Origin: a virus
Taxonomy: Duplodnaviria > Heunggongvirae > Uroviricota > Caudoviricetes
IMG/VR virus record: IMGVR_UViG_2531839147_000004
DNA length: 16,877 nt
Strand: one strand, 5' to 3'
This document shows positions 2,962 through 13,805 of the stretch, piece after piece. Position numbers and translations under genes: made by a program. Within the stretch, counting starts at the first letter, position 1; every line of letters begins with the position of its first letter. Under the pieces are notes generated by a model. The model was not told where the DNA came from. It saw only the letters and a list, made by a program, of their open reading frames with translations, and did not search any database.

Positions 2962-3203
2962 GCTGGTAATTCGTGCCTAATATACTTCACTTAACTTATA
3001 TCCCAGCTTTGATACAGATCATACAAATTAAATGCCCCAGTAATTGGCAGGCTGAGTAACTTAAAACTCCTTAGAATATAGGATGATTTGTATCGGCACT
3101 CATTCCACCATGCATTCCGATTAACCCCGCATAGCCAGTTGAACTTTGCTACTCTGTGAGAGGTAGTACCTTCTATCCAGTGCGGATTTAATTAATGGAA
3201 TAA

Positions 3204-5207
3204 ATGATTATGAGTGAAAATGATACAACCCCAAAGAAGTCTACAAGCCAGATTAACAAAGCGGTATTCTTTACATCTGCTTTGCTAATTTTCCTTCTTG
3301 TCGCCTTTGCCGCCGTATTCCCGGATGTCGCCGACAAAAATTTTAAACTACTTCAGCAACAAATCTTCACGAATGCCAGCTGGTTCTACATACTTGCTGT
3401 GGCCCTGATTTTACTGAGCGTCACGTTCCTTGGACTCTCACGTTACGGTGATATAAAGCTGGGCCCAGACCATGCGCAGCCTGATTTCAGCTACCACTCC
3501 TGGTTCGCGATGCTTTTTTCGGCAGGGATGGGGATCGGCCTGATGTTCTTTGGCGTTGCCGAACCTGTGATGCATTATCTTTCGCCACCTGTCGGCACTC
3601 CAGAGACCGTTGCGGCAGCGAAGGAAGCCATGCGCCTGACGTTCTTCCACTGGGGTCTGCACGCATGGGCAATTTATGCCATCGTGGCGCTGATTCTGGC
3701 CTTTTTCAGTTACCGTCACGGTCTGCCTTTAACGCTGCGTTCTGCGCTCTATCCCATTATCGGCGATCGCATTTACGGGCCTATAGGCCACGCGGTTGAT
3801 ATCTTCGCCGTGATAGGCACTGTCTTTGGCGTTGCAACATCGCTGGGTTACGGTGTATTGCAGGTGAATGCCGGTTTGAACCATCTTTTCGGCGTGCCCA
3901 TCAATGAAACGGTACAGGTCATTTTGATCGTGGTCATCACGGGGTTAGCGACGATTTCGGTGGTGTCCGGCCTGGACAAGGGAATACGCATCCTGTCTGA
4001 GCTTAATCTGGGCCTGGCGGTGTTGCTCCTGGCGCTGGTCTTGTGCCTGGGTCCCACTGTGCTTCTGCTGAAGTCATTTGTGGAAAATACGGGTGGTTAT
4101 CTGTCGGAACTGGTGAGTAAAACGTTCAACCTTTACGCGTATGAACCCAAGTCGAGCAACTGGCTGGGGGGCTGGACATTATTATACTGGGGATGGTGGC
4201 TTTCATGGTCGCCGTTTGTAGGTATGTTCATTGCACGCGTTTCCCGCGGCAGGACAATTCGTGAGTTCGTGACTGGCGTGTTGTTTGTTCCCGCCGGCTT
4301 TACGCTCATGTGGATGACGGTGTTTGGAAACAGCGCCATCTATCTCATCATGAACCAGGGCGCCACTGACCTCGCCAATACCGTTCAGCAGGATGTTGCG
4401 CTTGCCCTGTTTAATTTCCTGGAGCATTTCCCGTTCTCTTCCGTGCTGTCATTCATTGCAATGGCGATGGTCATCGTCTTCTTTGTAACGTCTGCTGATT
4501 CGGGGGCAATGGTTGTGGATACTCTGGCATCAGGTGGGGTGGCAAACACGCCCGTCTGGCAGCGAATTTTCTGGGCATCGCTCATGGGCGTTGTTGCTAT
4601 TGCCCTGCTGATCGCAGGGGGGCTGAGTGCGTTGCAAACCGTAACGATAGCGAGTGCATTGCCCTTCTCAGTTATCTTATTAATATCCATATACGGACTG
4701 TTAAAAGCCCTGCGTCGGGATTTGACCAAGCGTGAAAGCCTTAGCATGGCGACTATTGCTCCTACGGCTGCACGTAACCCAATTCCCTGGCAGAGAAGGT
4801 TACGCAATATCGCGTATTTGCCGAAGCGCTCTCTTGTGAAACGTTTTATGGACGACATTATCCAACCCGCCATGACGCTGGTTCAGGAGGAACTTAACAA
4901 GCAGGGAACGATAAGCCACATCAGTGACGCCGCCGAGGATCGTATTCGCCTTGAAGTCGATTTGGGCAACGAGCTGAATTATATATATGAAGTGAGGCTT
5001 CGCGGGTATAACTCACCGACCTTCGCGCTCGCTGCGCTGGATAATGATGAGCAGCAGAGTGAACAACATCGATATTATCGCGCTGAAGTCTATCTCAAAG
5101 AGGGCGGCCAAAATTATGATGTAATGGGCTGGAATCAGGAACAGCTGATTAATGACATACTGGACCAGTACGAAAAACACCTGCACTTCCTGCATCTGGT
5201 TCGTTAA
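3204..5207 (+). CDS. BCCT-family transporter, BetT-like (choline / glycine-betaine type) with long cytoplasmic C-terminal tail
   Basis: 667 aa; BCCT tryptophan signature GGWTLLYWGWWLSWSPF; overall layout and C-terminal tail (...DILDQYEKHLHFLHL) parallel E. coli BetT as I recall it. Confidence 0.9.
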   Translation: MIMSENDTTPKKSTSQINKAVFFTSALLIFLLVAFAAVFPDVADKNFKLLQQQIFTNASWFYILAVALILLSVTFLGLSRYGDIKLGPDHAQPDFSYHSWFAMLFSAGMGIGLMFFGVAEPVMHYLSPPVGTPETVAAAKEAMRLTFFHWGLHAWAIYAIVALILAFFSYRHGLPLTLRSALYPIIGDRIYGPIGHAVDIFAVIGTVFGVATSLGYGVLQVNAGLNHLFGVPINETVQVILIVVITGLATISVVSGLDKGIRILSELNLGLAVLLLALVLCLGPTVLLLKSFVENTGGYLSELVSKTFNLYAYEPKSSNWLGGWTLLYWGWWLSWSPFVGMFIARVSRGRTIREFVTGVLFVPAGFTLMWMTVFGNSAIYLIMNQGATDLANTVQQDVALALFNFLEHFPFSSVLSFIAMAMVIVFFVTSADSGAMVVDTLASGGVANTPVWQRIFWASLMGVVAIALLIAGGLSALQTVTIASALPFSVILLISIYGLLKALRRDLTKRESLSMATIAPTAARNPIPWQRRLRNIAYLPKRSLVKRFMDDIIQPAMTLVQEELNKQGTISHISDAAEDRIRLEVDLGNELNYIYEVRLRGYNSPTFALAALDNDEQQSEQHRYYRAEVYLKEGGQNYDVMGWNQEQLINDILDQYEKHLHFLHLVR

Positions 5208-5215
5208 CAGCAACA

Positions 5216-5243
5216 TGCCGCCACAGAGGCGGCATTTATTTAT
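5216..5243 (+). terminator. Rho-independent terminator after BCCT gene
   Basis: Stem TGCCGCC / GGCGGCA (7 bp), loop ACAGA, followed by TTTATTTAT. Confidence 0.55.
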
Positions 5244-5386
5244 CCCGGCTGCAATATGAGGGAATGCAGAATGATTTCACGCTGGAAATGGATGCTGAAG
5301 CAGACATTTAAAAACTATGGTTCAGGGCAACGTTATTCGCAATTGTCGCAATAATAACGGCCCTTTTATCAATTCTTTTTAAATCA

Positions 5387-6547
5387 ATGATACCTGAGTC
5401 GGTTTCCGTGAAGGTTGGTGCGGAAGCAGTCGATAACATTCTGAACATACTGGCATCGAGTATGCTGGCAGTGACCACATTTTCGCTGAGCATCATGGTC
5501 ACAGCCTACGGTTCAGCCACTACTAATGTGACTCCCAGAGCTACTCGTTTAGTTGTTGAAGACGTCACCACACAAAATGTACTGGCCACCTTCATCGGTT
5601 CTTTTCTCTTCAGTCTGGTAGGGATTATTGCCCTCAATATGGGAGCTTATGGAGAAAGGGGGAGAGTCATTTTATTCATTGTAACACTGGTTGTCATTGC
5701 CTTAATCCTCATCACATTGCTTCGCTGGATACAGCATTTGACCTCTCTGGGGAGGGTTGGTGAGACAACGGCAAAAGTAGAACAGGCGGCCATCGAAACA
5801 TTTATTGCGAGAGCAAGAAATCCCTGTCTCGGCGGATATCCATGGCTTGAGAACAATGAACAGCCGAAAGGAACGGTTGCAGTTTATCCGAAAAAGATTG
5901 GCTATGTTGAATATGTTGATATGGTGAAACTCAGCAAGCTGCTGACCAATGATCCCCGTCATGTATACCTCGTGGCGCAGCCGGGCAGTTTCATACATCC
6001 GTCCACGCCAGTTTTGTACCTGAGTCAGGGCCAGGAGTCATCAATCAGCACCGATTTACTTGAGACGATTATTGTCTCGGATGTACGTTCATTTGCTCAG
6101 GACCCCCGATTTTGTCTTAGCGTCATGGCCGAAATAGCCTGCCGAGCCCTTTCCCCCGCAGTGAACGATCCTGGAACCGCCATTGATGTCATTGGCAGAG
6201 GTGTACGTATACTTTCCGCTTACGCGCAGAATAAATCTGATGAAATAGAAGTGAAATATCCTTCTGTACATGTTGCACCACTTCAGAATAACGATCTACT
6301 TGAAGACTTTTTCTCACCTGTTGCGCGCGATGGTGCCAGTATGAGGGAAATTCAGATAAGGGTACTTAAAGGACTGTCGATGCTGAGTAAGGGTTGGCCT
6401 GGAATTTTTGCTGAAGCCGCACAAACCCTAGCATTTGAAACATTAGAGCATGCTACTCGTGCTGACCATATAGATTCTGACAGATATCTAATAAAATCAA
6501 TTTATTATAATTTATTTAGTGGCGAAGATTCTAATAAAAAACCATAG
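5387..6547 (+). CDS. Membrane protein of unknown function (DUF2254-like), N-terminus probably disrupted by a frameshift
   Basis: Three predicted TM helices then a soluble C-terminal domain. A well-placed SD+ATG at 5271 opens a 27-codon ORF in another frame; the main frame is open from 5312 and encodes a further TM helix before the first ATG. Confidence 0.55.
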   Translation: MIPESVSVKVGAEAVDNILNILASSMLAVTTFSLSIMVTAYGSATTNVTPRATRLVVEDVTTQNVLATFIGSFLFSLVGIIALNMGAYGERGRVILFIVTLVVIALILITLLRWIQHLTSLGRVGETTAKVEQAAIETFIARARNPCLGGYPWLENNEQPKGTVAVYPKKIGYVEYVDMVKLSKLLTNDPRHVYLVAQPGSFIHPSTPVLYLSQGQESSISTDLLETIIVSDVRSFAQDPRFCLSVMAEIACRALSPAVNDPGTAIDVIGRGVRILSAYAQNKSDEIEVKYPSVHVAPLQNNDLLEDFFSPVARDGASMREIQIRVLKGLSMLSKGWPGIFAEAAQTLAFETLEHATRADHIDSDRYLIKSIYYNLFSGEDSNKKP

Positions 6548-6609
6548 TTGCGGAGCAAGCGATACGGTTGTTGGCAAGTCAAGGGCAAAGCATTCGCGTG
6601 AGAGTGGGC

Positions 6610-6633
6610 GTCTGCTTTGTGCCAGAAGCGGAC
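6610..6633. repeat. Dyad element copy B: GTCTGC-N12-GCGGAC
   Basis: GTCTGC TTTGTGCCAGAA GCGGAC in the convergent intergenic region between the DUF2254-like gene and the LysR gene. Confidence 0.5.
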
Positions 6634-6677
6634 ATACGTAACTTATGATACGCATCGCCAATCATCCGTTTCAAACA

Positions 6678-7559
6678 TCAACGCGGAAACGTTTTAAGAA
6701 TGTAATCCCGAACATAGGCGGTTCGGCTGTTATTAGCCGTCCTTTTGTTCCAGACCAGATAAAGATGATTAGTCGGAGCGAGGTCTGCAGGTGTCACTGA
6801 AATCAGGCGACCACTTTTCAGGTCATTGTCACAGTGATAATCCGGCAGCACTGTCCACCCGTGGCCGTCACAGACCAAGTCGCGGATAATACGTAAATCC
6901 GGAATGGTGAATGTAGCCTGCATCTCAGGGGCTCTCTGAAACATGGAGGCCCAGAGCGCTCTAATCAGTGGCAACTCTTCGTCATAAGCAATCAGCGGTA
7001 ATGAGGCAAGCGTTTCAGCACCAGGTTCTGATCCGATGATCTCTGACATGGCGGGAGCATGAACAAGGAGCATGCGTTCAGTCAGTAGATGTGCATAGCC
7101 GTACAGACGGTCATCAGGCATAGATGCGGTAACAGCGAGATCGGCGCTCCCGTCATGCAAAAGGGAATAAATACGTTGCTTATTGCCGGTATGAAAGCGT
7201 AGGCGATACCCCTCCTTCATTAGTGGAGCCATTACTGTCCCAAGCCGGGAATGAATAAAATCTGGCGGTCCTGCCAGATTAATTGTTCCCCCACGTACAG
7301 AGCCTGACCGGAAAGAGGACAGCTTTTCTTCCAGACCATCAATGAAGGGTGAAACTGAGCGGGCAAGCTCATCCGCAGCTTCGGTTGCCGTCACGCCTCT
7401 GGCCTGCCTGATAAACAGACGCTTACCAACCAGAGTCTCAAGAGACTGGATATGCTGTGACGCCGCGGGCTGAGTGATGCCCAGTAGTTCTGCCGCCTTT
7501 GAAAAGGAGCCAGAGCGATAGGCCTCAAGAAACGTTCGCAGATGGCTCAGATGGCTCAT
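6678..7559 (-). CDS. LysR-family transcriptional regulator
   Basis: 293 aa; N-terminal LysR HTH (LRTFLEAYRSGSFSKAAELLGITQPAASQHIQSLE); start ATG overlaps the stop of the upstream ChaC-like gene (ATGA at 7556-7559). Confidence 0.9.
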   Translation of the reverse strand: MSHLSHLRTFLEAYRSGSFSKAAELLGITQPAASQHIQSLETLVGKRLFIRQARGVTATEAADELARSVSPFIDGLEEKLSSFRSGSVRGGTINLAGPPDFIHSRLGTVMAPLMKEGYRLRFHTGNKQRIYSLLHDGSADLAVTASMPDDRLYGYAHLLTERMLLVHAPAMSEIIGSEPGAETLASLPLIAYDEELPLIRALWASMFQRAPEMQATFTIPDLRIIRDLVCDGHGWTVLPDYHCDNDLKSGRLISVTPADLAPTNHLYLVWNKRTANNSRTAYVRDYILKTFPR

Positions 7560-8248
7560 AGTGAAGCGCCTCGCTGATGAAGTTTATCGTTACAGGGAGC
7601 CTCATGCAGAGCAAGGGCCAGTTCACTCACGTAATCATCCCGTATTCCCAACGCACCCAGAGTGGCCTGCAGTTTCCATACATAATCTGCATTCGTGCCA
7701 ATGTCTCCACGGGCAGATGCGATGCTCAACGCTACGGTCGCTGTAAGATTGTCCTGTTCATAATGCGGATGCAGTCTGTCTGATACGAAAGCCAGCGCCT
7801 GAATTTCCTTACCGTTTCCTAGCGAAACGTCTGCCCAGACCGGACGGTAAAGACCGGTTATCATCTCGCGCGTCCAGACAATTTCCAGCTCATTAATAAG
7901 AGTCGATTCCGGCAGTCTGAACGCAATACCTTCGGTAATTCCACCTTCGTCGAGCGATAACATCCTGCCGGGGACATCAGGAGTCGCTCGTCCGGATATC
8001 AAACGAATGCAGAAACTGCGCTGCCATCCTTTCAGACGGGCCCGTTGCATTTCTTCAATCGCCAGCACGGGATTCCACATCAATGACCCGTAGGCAAATA
8101 TCCAGACAGGAGCACCCGTCGGGCGCTCCTCCAGAGTAGAGTTCATTGATGCGCGTATTTTTTCAGCGTCCCAGAGCATATTCGCCGGGAGCAGCGCTTC
8201 ATGCACCCTGACAAATGTGCCATTAAGCATATTTTCACGGGTAAGCAT
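7556..8248 (-). CDS. ChaC-like gamma-glutamylcyclotransferase (glutathione-specific GGCT family)
   Basis: 230 aa; hallmark VWIFAYGSLMWNP motif and overall co-linearity with E. coli ChaC as I recall it; SD GGGAGG upstream. Confidence 0.85.
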   Translation of the reverse strand: MLTRENMLNGTFVRVHEALLPANMLWDAEKIRASMNSTLEERPTGAPVWIFAYGSLMWNPVLAIEEMQRARLKGWQRSFCIRLISGRATPDVPGRMLSLDEGGITEGIAFRLPESTLINELEIVWTREMITGLYRPVWADVSLGNGKEIQALAFVSDRLHPHYEQDNLTATVALSIASARGDIGTNADYVWKLQATLGALGIRDDYVSELALALHEAPCNDKLHQRGASL

Positions 8249-8259
8249 ATAACCTCCCT

Positions 8260-9459
8260 TTACTGGCCTACGATTTTAACCTGTTGAAATTTACGACTGT
8301 GGCTGCGACGGATTTGTGCAAGCAGCAACAGCAGGCCGAGCAGAGAAACAATCGCACCGCTGATACCGGTATACACGATACCGGCGTGGCTTATAGTAAT
8401 GCTGCCCAGTACTGATCCCAGCGCTATACCTGAGTTGAAGCCCGCAATATTCAGGCCGGCAGCAACACCATGCGCATGAGGAGCATGTTGCTCAGCGACA
8501 CCAATCAGACGGGCCTGCAGTGCCGGCACTGCGGCAAATGTCACCATACCCAGCAGCGCAACCAGAATGCCCATGCTCACCGGTGAGGATGACAGCAGCC
8601 ACATACCAAGCACGACAACAACAATGCCGCTAATGATGAGTATATTGGCACGATTAACCCCCATGCTGTCGGTAAGTTTCCCACCAAGAATATTACCTAC
8701 CGCAGCTGTAATACCGTAAACCAGCATAAACAGACTCACCGTTGCTCCGGTAACCCCTGTCACCTGCGTCAGAATAGGTGCGATAAAGGTGTAATCCGTA
8801 AACGAGCCTGCATACGCCAGCACCGTAACCAGCGCGCCGGCCAGCAACTTACGGTTAAACAGCATGCCGATATTCTGCATTGCTGAGTCACTATGTTCAC
8901 CGGGCACGCTGCGTACGGGATCTTTCATACCGAACAACAGTCCAAGGAATCCGAACGCGCCAAAAGCGGCAATAGCGCCGAGAACTGGACGCCATGAGAC
9001 CACCCCCCCCAACCATGTACTCAGCGGTACGCCGATTGCCATCGCCAGAGTAAAGCCACCAAATACCACAGCCACCGCTCTGCCTGCTTTACCCGGTCCA
9101 GCAAGACGAGCTGCGGTACTGGATGCCGCAGCCAGAAACAGGCCGTGTCCCAGACCAGCAATGAACCGCGCTAACAGGAGCTGAGGTAATGTGGCTGCAA
9201 ACGCGGCCGCCAGACTACCGGCAGTAAACACAACGGCAGTTGTAAGCATTACATTTTTCCGGCTCCAGCTTGCTGTCAGCGCAGACAGTACGGGTGCCGC
9301 GAACGTTGCCCCCAGTGCATAGGTTGTAACCGCTGCCCCGGTCTGCTCCACACCCACACACAACCCCTGAGCCATAACGTCTGTCAGCCCAATGGGGACA
9401 AATTCCGCGAGTCCGAGCGCAAAGGCACTGATAGTAAACACATAAATAACAAATGGCAT
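8260..9459 (-). CDS. MFS transporter (12-TM, YdhP / drug-sugar efflux-like)
   Basis: 399 aa, highly hydrophobic with repeated TM segments; N-terminal LGLAEFVPIGL motif typical of this MFS subgroup; SD CAGGAG before ATG; first gene of the MFS-ChaC-LysR operon. Confidence 0.85.
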   Translation of the reverse strand: MPFVIYVFTISAFALGLAEFVPIGLTDVMAQGLCVGVEQTGAAVTTYALGATFAAPVLSALTASWSRKNVMLTTAVVFTAGSLAAAFAATLPQLLLARFIAGLGHGLFLAAASSTAARLAGPGKAGRAVAVVFGGFTLAMAIGVPLSTWLGGVVSWRPVLGAIAAFGAFGFLGLLFGMKDPVRSVPGEHSDSAMQNIGMLFNRKLLAGALVTVLAYAGSFTDYTFIAPILTQVTGVTGATVSLFMLVYGITAAVGNILGGKLTDSMGVNRANILIISGIVVVVLGMWLLSSSPVSMGILVALLGMVTFAAVPALQARLIGVAEQHAPHAHGVAAGLNIAGFNSGIALGSVLGSITISHAGIVYTGISGAIVSLLGLLLLLAQIRRSHSRKFQQVKIVGQ

Positions 9460-9675
9460 GACTGGCTCCTGATTTAAGTAAGGAGTGCAGTCTGATTTAG
9501 AAAAACAGATAAATAAAATAATGTAAACTTCAGGCGGGATAAAATTATTTATATCTAAGGCAAAGATTCAATATTCCCACAGCACACAGAAGTTTTCTGT
9601 CTTCAGGGAGAGGAGCTTCGAAAGTTCAGACGAAAAATTCCTGCGGCCCCTTTAAGAGTCAGTTGGCCGGGTTTG

Positions 9676-9699
9676 GTCCGCTCCTCGCTCAAAGCGGAC
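9676..9699. repeat. Dyad element copy C: GTCCGC-N12-GCGGAC (perfect arms)
   Basis: GTCCGC TCCTCGCTCAAA GCGGAC about 220 bp upstream of the MFS operon start. Confidence 0.5.
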
Positions 9700-9878
9700 T
9701 AGAAGGTTAGCTTGCGTCGGACTTGGCGTATTTAAAGAAGTGCTGGTGGTGACTGGTTGTTGTGTTCCATTTCTACAGAACAAAATCACAGAAACTATAC
9801 CCAATAGTTATATTGAATCAATGATGAGACAGCCTCATATTTATCAGAACTGGTGTACGTCCAATACAGGAGGTTGTC

Positions 9879-9968
9879 GTGCTGGTTCTCAAATGTGCGC
9901 TAGCTATTGCGGCTGTAATGGCAATTTATTGTCTTGCTGTTGTTCTTATGGAGCGGCTTTCTGATTGA
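9879..9968 (+). CDS. Candidate small hydrophobic peptide (29 aa, MLVLKCALAIAAVMAIYCLAVVLMERLSD)
   Basis: Consensus SD AGGAGG (9868-9873) exactly 5 nt upstream of GTG 9879; single predicted TM helix. No recognised family; speculative. Confidence 0.3.
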   Translation: MLVLKCALAIAAVMAIYCLAVVLMERLSD

Positions 9969-10110
9969 TTACATACTGGCTAGAAAAAAGGTGTTACCTT
10001 GGTTTATCTTTGTCCGGCAAGGTGCGCTCATTAATCTTAAGTAAATTTATTGCTCAAGTATTCAGATTACTTCTTATGGTTGAAGTCTCCTGTCAATGTA
10101 GAACCAATAT

Positions 10111-10152
10111 ATTTACAAAAATGAGACCCGTCGGGGATAGCCCTGCCGGGTC
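10111..10152 (-). terminator. Rho-independent terminator of the YeaR-like gene
   Basis: 12-bp stem (10125-10136 / 10141-10152, one mismatch, loop ATAG); on the minus-strand transcript it is followed by UUUUU. Confidence 0.55.
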
Positions 10153-10182
10153 TGACTGTTAAAGCATTTTTAATATGATCAT

Positions 10183-10521
10183 CTATTTTTTGGTGCTATA
10201 GACTTTTTCGCCCGAGAAGTCTGGAGCGACCCAAAAGTTAATATTAAACTGAGCATCATCGCTTAGTTCAACACGGTGCCAGTATTGTGGTGGGCTTGTT
10301 GCAAAAGCGCCAGCATTAATGACTACTTTTATCTCCGGTTCAGTAGCATTCTCATCAGTAAAACCATAATATGTTACAGTGCCTTCCATTACGCACAACT
10401 GCCCAAAAACACCTGCTGCTGTATTATGATGTGTTAATAACGCTGAAGGTACGTTCTCTTTTGTGAAGAACGGAGTTGAGCGTTTGATTACCCAATCTTT
10501 AGGAATTCTCTTGTGTGTCAT
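10183..10521 (-). CDS. YeaR-like DUF1971 protein (nitrosative-stress regulon type)
   Basis: Motifs KRSTPFF and FATSPPQYWHRVE fit the YeaR/TehB-C-terminal cupin-like family. Start reassigned to the internal Met (ATG 10521, SD GAGGTGG) because the ORF-track start at 10545 lies inside the upstream operator palindrome. Confidence 0.7.
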   Translation of the reverse strand: MTHKRIPKDWVIKRSTPFFTKENVPSALLTHHNTAAGVFGQLCVMEGTVTYYGFTDENATEPEIKVVINAGAFATSPPQYWHRVELSDDAQFNINFWVAPDFSGEKVYSTKK

Positions 10522-10536
10522 AACCACCTCATCAAA

Positions 10537-10559
10537 AACATGCATTATAAATGCGTGTT
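10537..10559 (-). promoter_or_regulatory. NsrR-type operator (11-1-11 palindrome) overlapping a TATAAT -10 element
   Basis: AACATGCATTA T AAATGCGTGTT, 9 of 11 arm positions symmetric; resembles the E. coli NsrR consensus as I recall it. TATAAT on the gene strand sits at the palindrome centre (10545-10550). Confidence 0.5.
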
Positions 10560-11334
10560 TTTGAGGGTTATGTCAAGCTGTTATGAAACACATAATTGAT
10601 ATGTTGATTAGAGGAGAAGATATAATAAATATGGTTGTTTTTCGTATAACTATTTGTTTTACTTTTAGTTTATGCATTCTGTGTGTTAGGAATAAGTTAT
10701 TAAAGTTTAATCAAAAAATCTCGATGTAGTCCACATAGATTATTGTTACTGAACCTTATTGTGTGTATTAGTTGTGTTCTGAAATTTCAGCTTAATTATT
10801 TATGATGTATTTTTTAACGATAAATATTTTCCCAGGATACCTTTACTGTGTATATAAATAAATTATATACACATAAATAATGTAAAGGCGTCCTTTTAGA
10901 TATATCTTATCAAATGTTAATGACTTGAGTGGGAAATATGATTCCAGCAACTTATCATGTGGCTACTTTATAAAAATAATGCCCATATAAAACAACAAGC
11001 GAAAAGGATTACGGATAAAAAAGGAGCGAGATGTGCGAACTTGTTATTTTCCATGTTTAACCACCTTAAATAATTGATGATGACGGGATGATTGCATCTG
11101 TAATGCTTTTATTGAAATGTTATGATAAAAAAGAACTTTTGCATAACATTAAAATGTAATTTATCTAATCGTTTTTAATAATAAATGTCGTATTTCTATC
11201 CTTGTACCAGCTATTTGATATGTAGTGTTTGTTCATGCTATGTGGGGCTTTACACCATAGCCAGTTTATTTATACTTTATTCGTCAGCCTGAACAACTGG
11301 CATCTGCTGCGCTGCGCCATCGAGAGATTGAGAA

Positions 11335-11934
11335 ATGGCGCATATACAACTGGTCAAACAAACTTCTTCTGGTTTACTTCTCCCGGCGACGCCGGAGAGT
11401 TGCGATTTTCTGCATCAAATCAAAATAGGTGAGTGGATACACGCAGACTTTAAGCGTGTGCGTAACTACGCATTCCACAAGCGTTTTTTCAAACTCCTGC
11501 AACTGGGATTCGATTACTGGACTCCGGTCGGTGGGGCGATCACGCCTCGCGAACGAGAACTGCTGTCTGGTTTCGTTGATTACCTGTGCGAATCAGTTGG
11601 TCGGGAACACACGCCAGCCCTGAGTGATGCCGCAGAGCAATACCTTAACACCGTTGCGACTCGTAGAACCCGGGATACGGCGTTGCTAAAGTCGTTTGAG
11701 GCTTTCCGCGAGTGGGTAACCATTCAGGCCGGATTTTACACCGAGCATATTTATCCGGACGGTAGCCGTGGGCGTCGGGCAAAATCCATCGCTTTTGCGA
11801 ATATGGACGAAGTCGAGTTTCAGCAGGTTTATAAATCTGTACTGAATGTGCTGTGGAACTGGATTCTGTTTCGTAAATTCTCCTCTCAGGAGGAAGTTGA
11901 AAATGTGGCCGCACAACTACTGGAGTTTGCGTAA
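11335..11934 (+). CDS. Lambdoid nin-region protein (DUF1367-like), function unknown
   Basis: 199-aa ORF; stop overlaps next start (TAATG at 11932-11936); family assignment from memory only. Confidence 0.5.
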   Translation: MAHIQLVKQTSSGLLLPATPESCDFLHQIKIGEWIHADFKRVRNYAFHKRFFKLLQLGFDYWTPVGGAITPRERELLSGFVDYLCESVGREHTPALSDAAEQYLNTVATRRTRDTALLKSFEAFREWVTIQAGFYTEHIYPDGSRGRRAKSIAFANMDEVEFQQVYKSVLNVLWNWILFRKFSSQEEVENVAAQLLEFA

Positions 11935-13215: not shown

Positions 13216-13805
13216 GGACTGGTTTATTGTATGCCAAATGATTATTAAAAAGGTTGTGTTAATAACAAAATCCGAAATAATATGCCTGCATATTTTTATC
13301 TTGCTTATATTCTGCATATTGTGCATAGCAGGCTCATCCCTGCAATCAAAACTGTATGATGAGTTATTTTTTTTTCCTTTTTTCCAGTCATCTGATGATG
13401 ACCTGCTTCTTTTTAATCCGGATCGACATCAGTTTTTTAAGATAATTCCTGCGAGTTATATGCATAAATACCACAAACTCCGCATTTTATGTGGTTGGGA
13501 GTTGCCGGGCGCGCAGTGAGTTTGCTAAGAAAACTCCTGCATGGTGAATCCCCCTGTGCGGTGGGGTGATACCATTAACCTTTTCTGTCGCCGACAGGTA
13601 TCACGAACATTTTGTTCACCGGGAGGCACCCGGCACCATGCACTTCAATAGATTCTCTCCACATTATGGATATTCTTTCAGAATATCCCACGCAGACTTT
13701 GTGTAAATGTTAACAAATGTGCGTTTTATTTGATCTGATTCGCTGTTTGAGCGTCCAAAACAACGGTATATATAATCCTTTACTATATGACATATGTGAG
13801 GAAAA

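Follow-up and report, generated by a model that had tools for sequence, protein, structure and literature searches.

A LysR-associated MFS transporter cassette with an embedded ChaC-like enzyme in a Rac-type prophage of Escherichia coli

The viral record IMGVR_UViG_2531839147_000004 (Caudoviricetes), a stretch of 16,877 nucleotides denoted in the following as the window, harbors on its minus strand three adjacent genes for a major facilitator superfamily (MFS) transporter, a ChaC-like gamma-glutamylcyclotransferase (GGCT), and a LysR-type transcriptional regulator (LTTR). These genes form one conserved, co-inherited, operon-like unit. The locus, in which an accessory ChaC subfamily is embedded in a putatively LysR-controlled pump cassette, is real, widely conserved, and uncharacterized. 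Tentatively, the cassette is regarded as a thiol/electrophile-stress module for LysR-activated efflux and glutathione turnover, carried by prophages or plasmids, and not as a device for nutrient uptake. Full-text literature searches brought up analogies only, and neither a ChaC-MFS-LysR locus nor a GGCT of the Rac prophage was found described; this agrees with a first-pass annotation, made from the sequence alone, that had not recognized the arrangement as a described locus. As every component stems from a well-known family, the advance would be incremental rather than conceptual. What the locus offers is a transporter-linked, mobile, and putatively inducible ChaC subfamily, for which a regulator and an operator are predicted and candidate inducers (electrophiles, thiols, and gamma-glutamyl compounds) can be named.

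Arrangement and conservation of the three-gene unit

The first-pass annotation had described a minus-strand MFS-ChaC-LysR trio with an 11-nt gap and an ATGA overlap, and the open reading frames (ORFs) lie at exactly these positions (Table 1). As read from the sequence, the MFS gene ends with a TAA codon (8262-8260), followed after the 11-nt spacer by the ATG of the ChaC gene at 8248, and the ATGA at 7559-7556 combines the ChaC stop with the LysR start in a 4-nt overlap. One detail needs correction: the Shine-Dalgarno (SD) sequence of the ChaC gene had been placed inside the 3' end of the MFS gene, but GGGAGG is located in the spacer, abutting the MFS stop. SD-like sequences are also present at the MFS/ChaC junction of four further loci (L083, L084, L086, and L088). 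Consensus scanning of positions 5200-11400 yielded 13 promoter-like sites (10.7 in shuffles) and nine terminator-like sites (5.4 in shuffles), in neither case an excess over chance, and found no intrinsic terminator 3' of the LysR gene. An Rfam scan gave no match within or near the triad.

Table 1. Features of the window discussed in the text (coordinates refer to the whole stretch)
Feature	Position	Strand	Remarks
MFS transporter gene	8260-9459	minus	ORF, 399 aa; first in operon; AraJ/SotB/Cmx-like DHA1 type
ChaC-like gamma-glutamylcyclotransferase gene, accessory subfamily	7556-8248	minus	ORF, 230 aa; middle gene
LysR-type regulator gene	6678-7559	minus	ORF, 293 aa; last gene
MFS/ChaC spacer, 11 nt	8249-8259	minus	carries the ChaC Shine-Dalgarno sequence GGGAGG (8258-8253)
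Operator site 1, ATAAATAATTTTAT	9539-9552	minus	interrupted palindrome ATAAA-N4-TTTAT, at -93 relative to the MFS ATG; putative LysR recognition site
Operator site 2, ATTATTTTATTTAT	9509-9522	minus	at -63 relative to the MFS ATG, 30 bp downstream of site 1; putative activation site
Candidate -10 hexamer TAAATC	9494-9499	minus	suggested by upstream alignments
Horizontally transferred triad segment	6609-9700		blastn vs Klebsiella plasmid L002, 92%
Variable prophage cargo cassette (BCCT, DUF2254, LysR-ChaC-MFS)	2962-9684		flank comparison with E. coli 162.2

Homology and synteny searches showed that the triad recurs in Enterobacter, Citrobacter, a Klebsiella plasmid, and metagenome contigs. Co-directional copies with unrelated flanks were found in Enterobacter sp. 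BIGb0383 (MFS 96%, ChaC 89%, and LysR 91% identity), a soil metagenome contig (88%, 82%, and 90%), Logan contigs flanked by insertion sequences (IS) (70%, 59%, and 65%), Citrobacter sp. wls619 (71%, 56%, and 59%), and Klebsiella variicola-type contigs, where the LysR gene is truncated. Among plasmids, the triad was encountered once, on an IncFIB/IncFII plasmid of Klebsiella pneumoniae (L002) that is 92.5% identical and shares nothing but the triad with the window. Within E. coli the unit is accessory, being present in 319 of 5426 complete genomes (about 6%) at an identity of at least 99%. In distant copies the three genes diverge together (MFS 70-71%, LysR 59-65%, and ChaC 56-59% identity). 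The recurrence of the same gene order in unrelated genomic contexts, with the 4-nt overlap in close relatives, goes beyond a chance arrangement. The ATGA overlap is confined to close relatives; a 35-nt overlap is found in L086 and a 160-nt gap in L088. In a blastn comparison of the window, an Enterobacter locus (L083) matches positions 6675-9572 and a metagenome contig (L084) positions 6678-9552. The DNA homology to these independent loci thus extends from the LysR stop (6675-6678) to 9552-9572, at or slightly beyond operator site 1, delimiting a conserved unit of 2.9 kb that encompasses the operator/promoter region and the three genes.

A metagenome scan with the MFS alignment delivered 75 loci; pooled with earlier loci, these provide 75 MFS orthologues (identity 60% or higher) that group at 90% identity into 26 clusters, denoted as lineages. 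An orthologous LysR (55-100% identity) adjoins the MFS gene in 18 of the 26, downstream on the same strand in ten clusters and divergently upstream in eight. ChaC adjoins the MFS gene in ten of the 26 and follows it directly in eight; in two clusters a gene for a beta-propeller protein (MRJP/SGL-like) lies between MFS and ChaC. The MFS-ChaC order occurs with a distal LysR, as in the window, in four lineages and with a divergent LysR in another four. MFS-LysR pairs without ChaC are common, e.g. in a lineage whose MFS and LysR are 82% and 80% identical to those of the window, or in Pseudomonas, where the MFS (72%) is followed by LysR (61%). From these neighbor counts, MFS and LysR emerge as the constant core, and ChaC as a frequent, position-specific, and optional addition. 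A module centered on ChaC is therefore not what the lineages display. The co-directional LysR at the distal end, which the first-pass annotation had contrasted with a divergent one, is found in the window and other lineages, but eight lineages carry the orthologous regulator divergently from the MFS gene. A scan keyed on ChaC encountered this MFS in none of 80 loci, which were mostly housekeeping ones; the idea that the triad is confined to a tight clade, derived from a ChaC-keyed genome scan dominated by housekeeping loci, was wrong and was corrected by the MFS-keyed metagenome scan.

As ChaC is missing from 16 of the 26 MFS lineages, the three genes could lack a shared pathway altogether: the MFS-LysR pair would be an ordinary regulated pump, and ChaC a passenger inserted between the two genes, with an independent role in basal glutathione turnover. 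The faster evolution of ChaC compared with its neighbors fits this idea, as do some paralogues of the same clade located away from any such MFS gene. Nevertheless, it is judged improbable, since ChaC lies directly downstream of the MFS gene in two regulator arrangements over a range of MFS identities from 61 to 100%, the MFS-linked ChaCs form one clade that diverges along with the MFS, and the two genes are spaced with translational tightness, the SD sequence lying in the 11-nt gap.

Transporter, regulator, and enzyme

The MFS protein matches the Pfam family MFS_1 (2.8e-42). Its best NCBIfam matches are Cmx/CmrA (3.8e-61) and the SotB-type sugar efflux family (2.3e-46), followed by AraJ, CmlV, and NepI, whereas importer models score 1e-18 or weaker, compared with 1e-61 for the best exporter model. 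Orthologues are named 'arabinose efflux permease' or 'DHA1 family' in their sources, and solved relatives are limited to E. coli SotB entries (6KKI, 1.4e-26), with a full-length alignment of residues 7-384 onto SotB 44-412. The DHA1 pumps SotB, AraJ, NepI, and Cmx/CmrA are thus the closest relatives of the protein in sequence and structure, but none of them has been described with a ChaC partner. All scores stay far under the equivalog cut-offs (Cmx/CmrA 207.2 vs 400, SotB-type 158.5 vs 401, AraJ 139.3 vs 499, and NepI 109.8 vs 584), and for this reason no substrate can be transferred from the named pumps. The protein is best described as an efflux-family pump, for which the exporter nature of the best-matching families suggests outward transport. 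A transporter dedicated to uptake, as originally proposed, gains no support from these comparisons: efflux pumps account for all of the best family matches, and the sugar efflux pump SotB provides the nearest solved structure.

The regulator shows the two domains of its family, HTH_1 (4.4e-21, residues 4-62) and LysR_substrate (3.6e-26, residues 89-290). Its best NCBIfam match is ArgP/LysG, at 88.5 bits under the cut-off of 197 and hence outside this subfamily; among solved structures only CrgA (3HHG) was matched, which was uninformative. More can be learned from the region upstream of the MFS gene. LTTR operators consist of a recognition site and an activation site, the latter overlapping a weak -35 element. 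An AT-rich block upstream of the MFS gene is common to all six triad loci examined first, the remaining intergenic region being unalignable, and both operator sites are kept at conserved positions in triad loci. ATAAA-N4-TTTAT has a single match in the window (0.06 expected), and 17 of 25 lineages, including some with a divergent LysR, have the palindrome with up to one mismatch in the 200 nt upstream of the MFS gene (0.72 expected from shuffles). In most lineages an (A/T)T(A/G)ATT element is found at +30/31 from the start of site 1. Site 2 of the window overlaps a weak -35, and some 17 nt beyond the site-2 region the alignments repeatedly show a TAnnnT hexamer (TAAATC, TACGAT, TAGAGT, or TAAAGT), a spacing that fits a -10 element. 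The conserved predicted two-site operator travels with the orthologous LysR; its geometry matches that expected of LysR-type sites, which suggests where LysR would bind and transcription would start. A sigma-70-like site, TTGAAT/AATAAT at 9571-9544, was not adopted; it is conserved no further than Enterobacter L083.

A comparable logic is known from LysG-LysE and ArgP-ArgO, where the LTTR responds to a compound in the cytoplasm by switching on an exporter gene via an operator with two sites, as may also apply to the LysR of the window. MexT is an LTTR controlling an efflux system, MexEF-OprN, along with its regulon (PMC2794183). In contrast to these systems, the pump of the window is an MFS protein and not of the LysE or RND type. 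Its regulator gene is distal in the operon and not divergent, and the ATAAA-N4-TTTAT motif is specific to its family. In Burkholderiales (Cupriavidus and Variovorax; L008, L011, L036, and L048), a divergent LysR gene is located immediately upstream of ChaC, its product being 23-30% identical to the LysR of the window. LysR control of ChaC may thus extend beyond the cassette.

The ChaC-like protein matches the Pfam family ChaC (PF04752) with 2.6e-35 and 122.5 bits (cut-off 21), covering profile positions 1-171 of 176. Throughout alignments of 18 and 54 sequences, YGSL 53-56, R87, and R127-E128-M129, with the catalytic glutamate E128, do not vary; they correspond to the active-site residues of CHAC1, YGSL38-41, R72, and E115 (PMC12756093). 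Among solved proteins, human ChaC2 (2.4e-08) and the yeast glutathione-specific GGCT come closest in sequence. With an AlphaFold2 model (pLDDT 90.8), Foldseek returned human ChaC2 (6KY1, 1.7e-15, TM 0.85 on the target) and the yeast enzyme (5HWI) at the top, ahead of generic GGCT and gamma-glutamylamine cyclotransferase (GGACT). Judged by sequence and model, the middle gene product is a genuine enzyme of the ChaC fold whose catalytic motifs are intact. It is presumably cytoplasmic, as its sequence lacks a signal-peptide-like N-terminus. No NCBIfam model matched the protein, so that no name could be transferred.

The protein is about 44% identical to the housekeeping ChaC of Escherichia. A gene annotated as chaC is present in 5420 of the 5426 E. 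coli genomes, separate from the triad, and Erwinia aeris possesses both kinds of ChaC (loci L004 and L022). In a neighbor-joining tree, which has no support values and is indicative only, the MFS-linked ChaCs and a few relocated paralogues form one clade apart from the housekeeping enterobacterial ChaC. By these sequence comparisons the protein is an additional paralogue and not the orthologue of housekeeping chaC. Both share the Pfam family, the fold, the bacterial N-terminal extension, and the invariant YGSL, R87, E128, and F154, and probably also the chemistry, i.e. the conversion of glutathione to 5-oxoproline and Cys-Gly. The genomic setting differs: housekeeping chaC forms a chaB-chaC pair beside chaA, whereas the gene of the window is linked to a LysR regulator and a transporter. 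The physiological role of E. coli chaC is described as unresolved in a 2026 preprint (bioRxiv 10.64898/2026.05.15.725350). In some E. coli strains (MS 119-7, YZB902, and HE302), the ChaC-like gene of the triad is split by IS100, and an IS3 element lies nearby; the enzyme is consequently dispensable in those hosts.

About seven positions discriminate the accessory ChaC clade from the housekeeping enzymes, and only L/F133 and A52 lie near catalytic motifs; position 133, beside the catalytic motif, is L or F in the accessory clade and C, A, or S in housekeeping ChaC. With so few discriminating residues, a new substrate is not predictable for the accessory clade. The difference at position 133 could nonetheless be placed in the picture of a mobile resistance cassette, in which the pump would expel a toxic gamma-glutamyl compound, e.g. 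an antimetabolite or a natural product, the ChaC-like enzyme would remove the gamma-glutamyl group, and LysR would sense the compound. An efflux-type pump with a modifying enzyme and a regulator is the layout of many such cassettes, the best MFS model is a chloramphenicol-efflux family, and the triad has spread via prophage, plasmid, and IS-flanked contexts. However, no toxin is known that would fit, the enzyme departs from housekeeping ChaC at few positions and in a conservative manner, and ChaC is optional, so that this explanation is considered quite unlikely.

Possible roles of the cassette

In the favored reading of a stress module, a single promoter upstream of the MFS gene would transcribe the MFS, ChaC-like, and LysR genes in this order. 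LysR would bind both operator sites and, upon sensing a cytoplasmic ligand, activate the promoter. As the LysR gene is translationally coupled at the distal end, the arrangement in the window would furthermore entail positive feedback on LysR synthesis. The cytoplasmic ChaC paralogue would cleave the gamma-glutamyl bond of glutathione or of a derivative, e.g. an S-conjugate, giving 5-oxoproline and Cys-Gly or its adduct, and the MFS protein would export the offending compound or the cleavage product.

The neighborhoods of the cassette point in the same direction. Genes for NemA-like old yellow enzyme (OYE) reductases are located within about 3 kb in 7 of the 26 MFS lineages, compared with 0 of 68 control neighborhoods of housekeeping ChaC (Fisher p = 6e-5), and a TIGR03571 LLM oxidoreductase, above the cut-off, lies near the MFS gene in 5 of the 26, again compared with 0 of 68 controls (Fisher p = 1e-3); both p-values are optimistic because the control loci are largely syntenic. 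Genes for DsbA-like proteins, glutathione S-transferase, Grx2, FMN reductase, and glyoxalase are also found near MFS lineages. L085, the locus of a sister paralogue, has ChaC behind an RND pump gene and in the vicinity of frmR/ADH/GFA-like genes.

The first-pass annotation had instead suggested uptake and degradation of a gamma-glutamyl compound. Accordingly worded, the MFS protein would import glutathione or a gamma-glutamyl peptide, the ChaC paralogue would cleave it to 5-oxoproline and Cys-Gly, and LysR would induce the genes with the substrate present; the host would thereby gain cysteine, sulfur, or glutamate from gamma-glutamyl compounds of the gut or host. Part of this proposal stands, namely the co-inherited unit and the ChaC-fold enzyme, whose active site is intact. 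Transporter and enzyme are tightly linked and co-diverge, the carriers are gut-associated E. coli and Klebsiella, and the proposal follows the logic of catabolic operons. Precedents exist as well. In Francisella, the MFS protein NgtA imports intact glutathione, Cgc1 is cytoplasmic, and Ggt and ChaC take part in glutathione utilization (bioRxiv 10.1101/2023.02.02.526638); yeast Seo1p is reported to import gamma-Glu-Met. Similar to the locus of the window, the Francisella system ties an MFS protein to intracellular glutathione breakdown, with ChaC as part of glutathione catabolism. By description, though, NgtA belongs to a different MFS subfamily, Pht, which is confined to intracellular pathogens (bioRxiv 10.1101/2023.02.02.526638), its partner is Cgc1 and not ChaC, and a three-gene operon with LysR has not been described there, while the MFS of the window is AraJ/SotB/Cmx-like. 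Uptake is further disfavored by the efflux-dominated family of the transporter with its far weaker importer models, by the many lineages that conserve the MFS-LysR pair without ChaC, by the sister ChaC paralogue behind an RND exporter gene, and by the genes nearby, among which no peptidase or 5-oxoprolinase recurs but reductases, LLM oxidoreductases, and thiol-transferase-like genes do. On balance, uptake is a serious rival but the less likely reading.

Several points also weigh against the stress module. A transporter, a cytoplasmic hydrolase, and a LysR activator make up a classic catabolic-operon layout too, and the one pointer to activation by LysR over repression is the predicted site geometry. 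Membership of the MFS family does not reveal the direction of transport, all family scores being well under the equivalog cut-offs. The control neighborhoods are mostly syntenic housekeeping loci and as such not fully independent, and OYE or LLM genes are missing next to the copies of E. coli, Klebsiella, and Enterobacter, so that the detoxification context is borrowed from distant lineages. Finally, characterized ChaC members are specific for reduced glutathione, and none is known to act on glutathione conjugates (PMC12756093).

A more specific version of the stress module is held with much more reserve and regarded as unlikely: the accessory ChaC clade might have diverged to act on glutathione S-conjugates, or be co-induced to clear them, and form together with the LysR-controlled MFS exporter a bacterial cytoplasmic 'mercapturate-like' disposal route for electrophile adducts, disseminated among Enterobacteriaceae by prophages and plasmids. 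If this held, it would be the first defined physiological role for bacterial ChaC enzymes. Should the cassette alter electrophile/oxidant tolerance, or make host glutathione usable, it would act as a determinant of fitness in about 6% of sequenced E. coli and on Klebsiella plasmids.

As a separate observation, the TIGR03571 luciferase-like oxidoreductase repeatedly adjoins accessory-clade ChaC genes, with or without the MFS gene (L004, L085, L103/L104, L135, L146, and L166). This unexplained linkage may hint at the true substrate class.

Prophage setting and neighboring features

The window represents a Rac-type lambdoid prophage of E. coli. In E. coli strain 165, which contains the same DNA, recET, kilR, sieB, ydaT, and a DUF977 gene are located on one side, and genes for DUF1367, DUF1364, and DUF1133 proteins, holin, and tail fibers on the other. 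E. coli 162.2 shares the flanks of the window at 1-2961 and 9685-9983 with 97% identity, and these set sharp boundaries to the cargo; in place of 2962-9684, this strain possesses a hypothetical gene and the abortive-infection gene AbiH. The variable slot lies just after the DUF977 gene of the Rac-type prophage. A prophage slot occupied by Abi defense genes in some strains thus holds transport/stress cargo in others.

This exchange raises the question of a defense or superinfection function of the prophage, e.g. abortive infection via glutathione depletion. Apart from AbiH in the same slot of E. coli 162.2, the observations argue against it: PADLOC models gave no hit (E <= 0.01) with any of the six cargo proteins, a megablast search of the triad against 50,697 phage records gave no match, marking it as no part of the typical phage gene set, the triad also occurs in chromosomal contexts outside prophages and on a plasmid, and the slot holds plainly metabolic cargo (BCCT) as well. 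Such a function is therefore deemed highly improbable.

Besides the triad, the slot carries at 3204-6547 the genes for a BCCT transporter resembling BetT (752 bits with the NCBIfam model BetT, above the cut-off) and a DUF2254 membrane protein. Many E. coli have this BCCT-DUF2254 pair on the chromosome, of which the part in the slot is a copy with about 94% identity. As the triad part matches the Klebsiella plasmid, the prophage cargo is a composite of at least two imported segments.

Beyond the slot, about 300 bp (9685-9983) without an annotated feature are 90-97% conserved in many E. coli genomes and have no Rfam match; in E. coli 162.2 this segment lies directly upstream of hokD. On the minus strand, 10183-10545 encodes a DUF1971 protein resembling the N-terminal domain of TehB, followed by an unusually AT-rich stretch (10400-11400, GC 0.30-0.34). 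As the strain carrying AbiH has hokD there instead, this region resembles another variable slot. Within the prophage's late region, the gammaproteobacterial small RNA STnc100 is recognized by Rfam at 13509-13695 on the plus strand, with 86.6 bits against a gathering score of 47.

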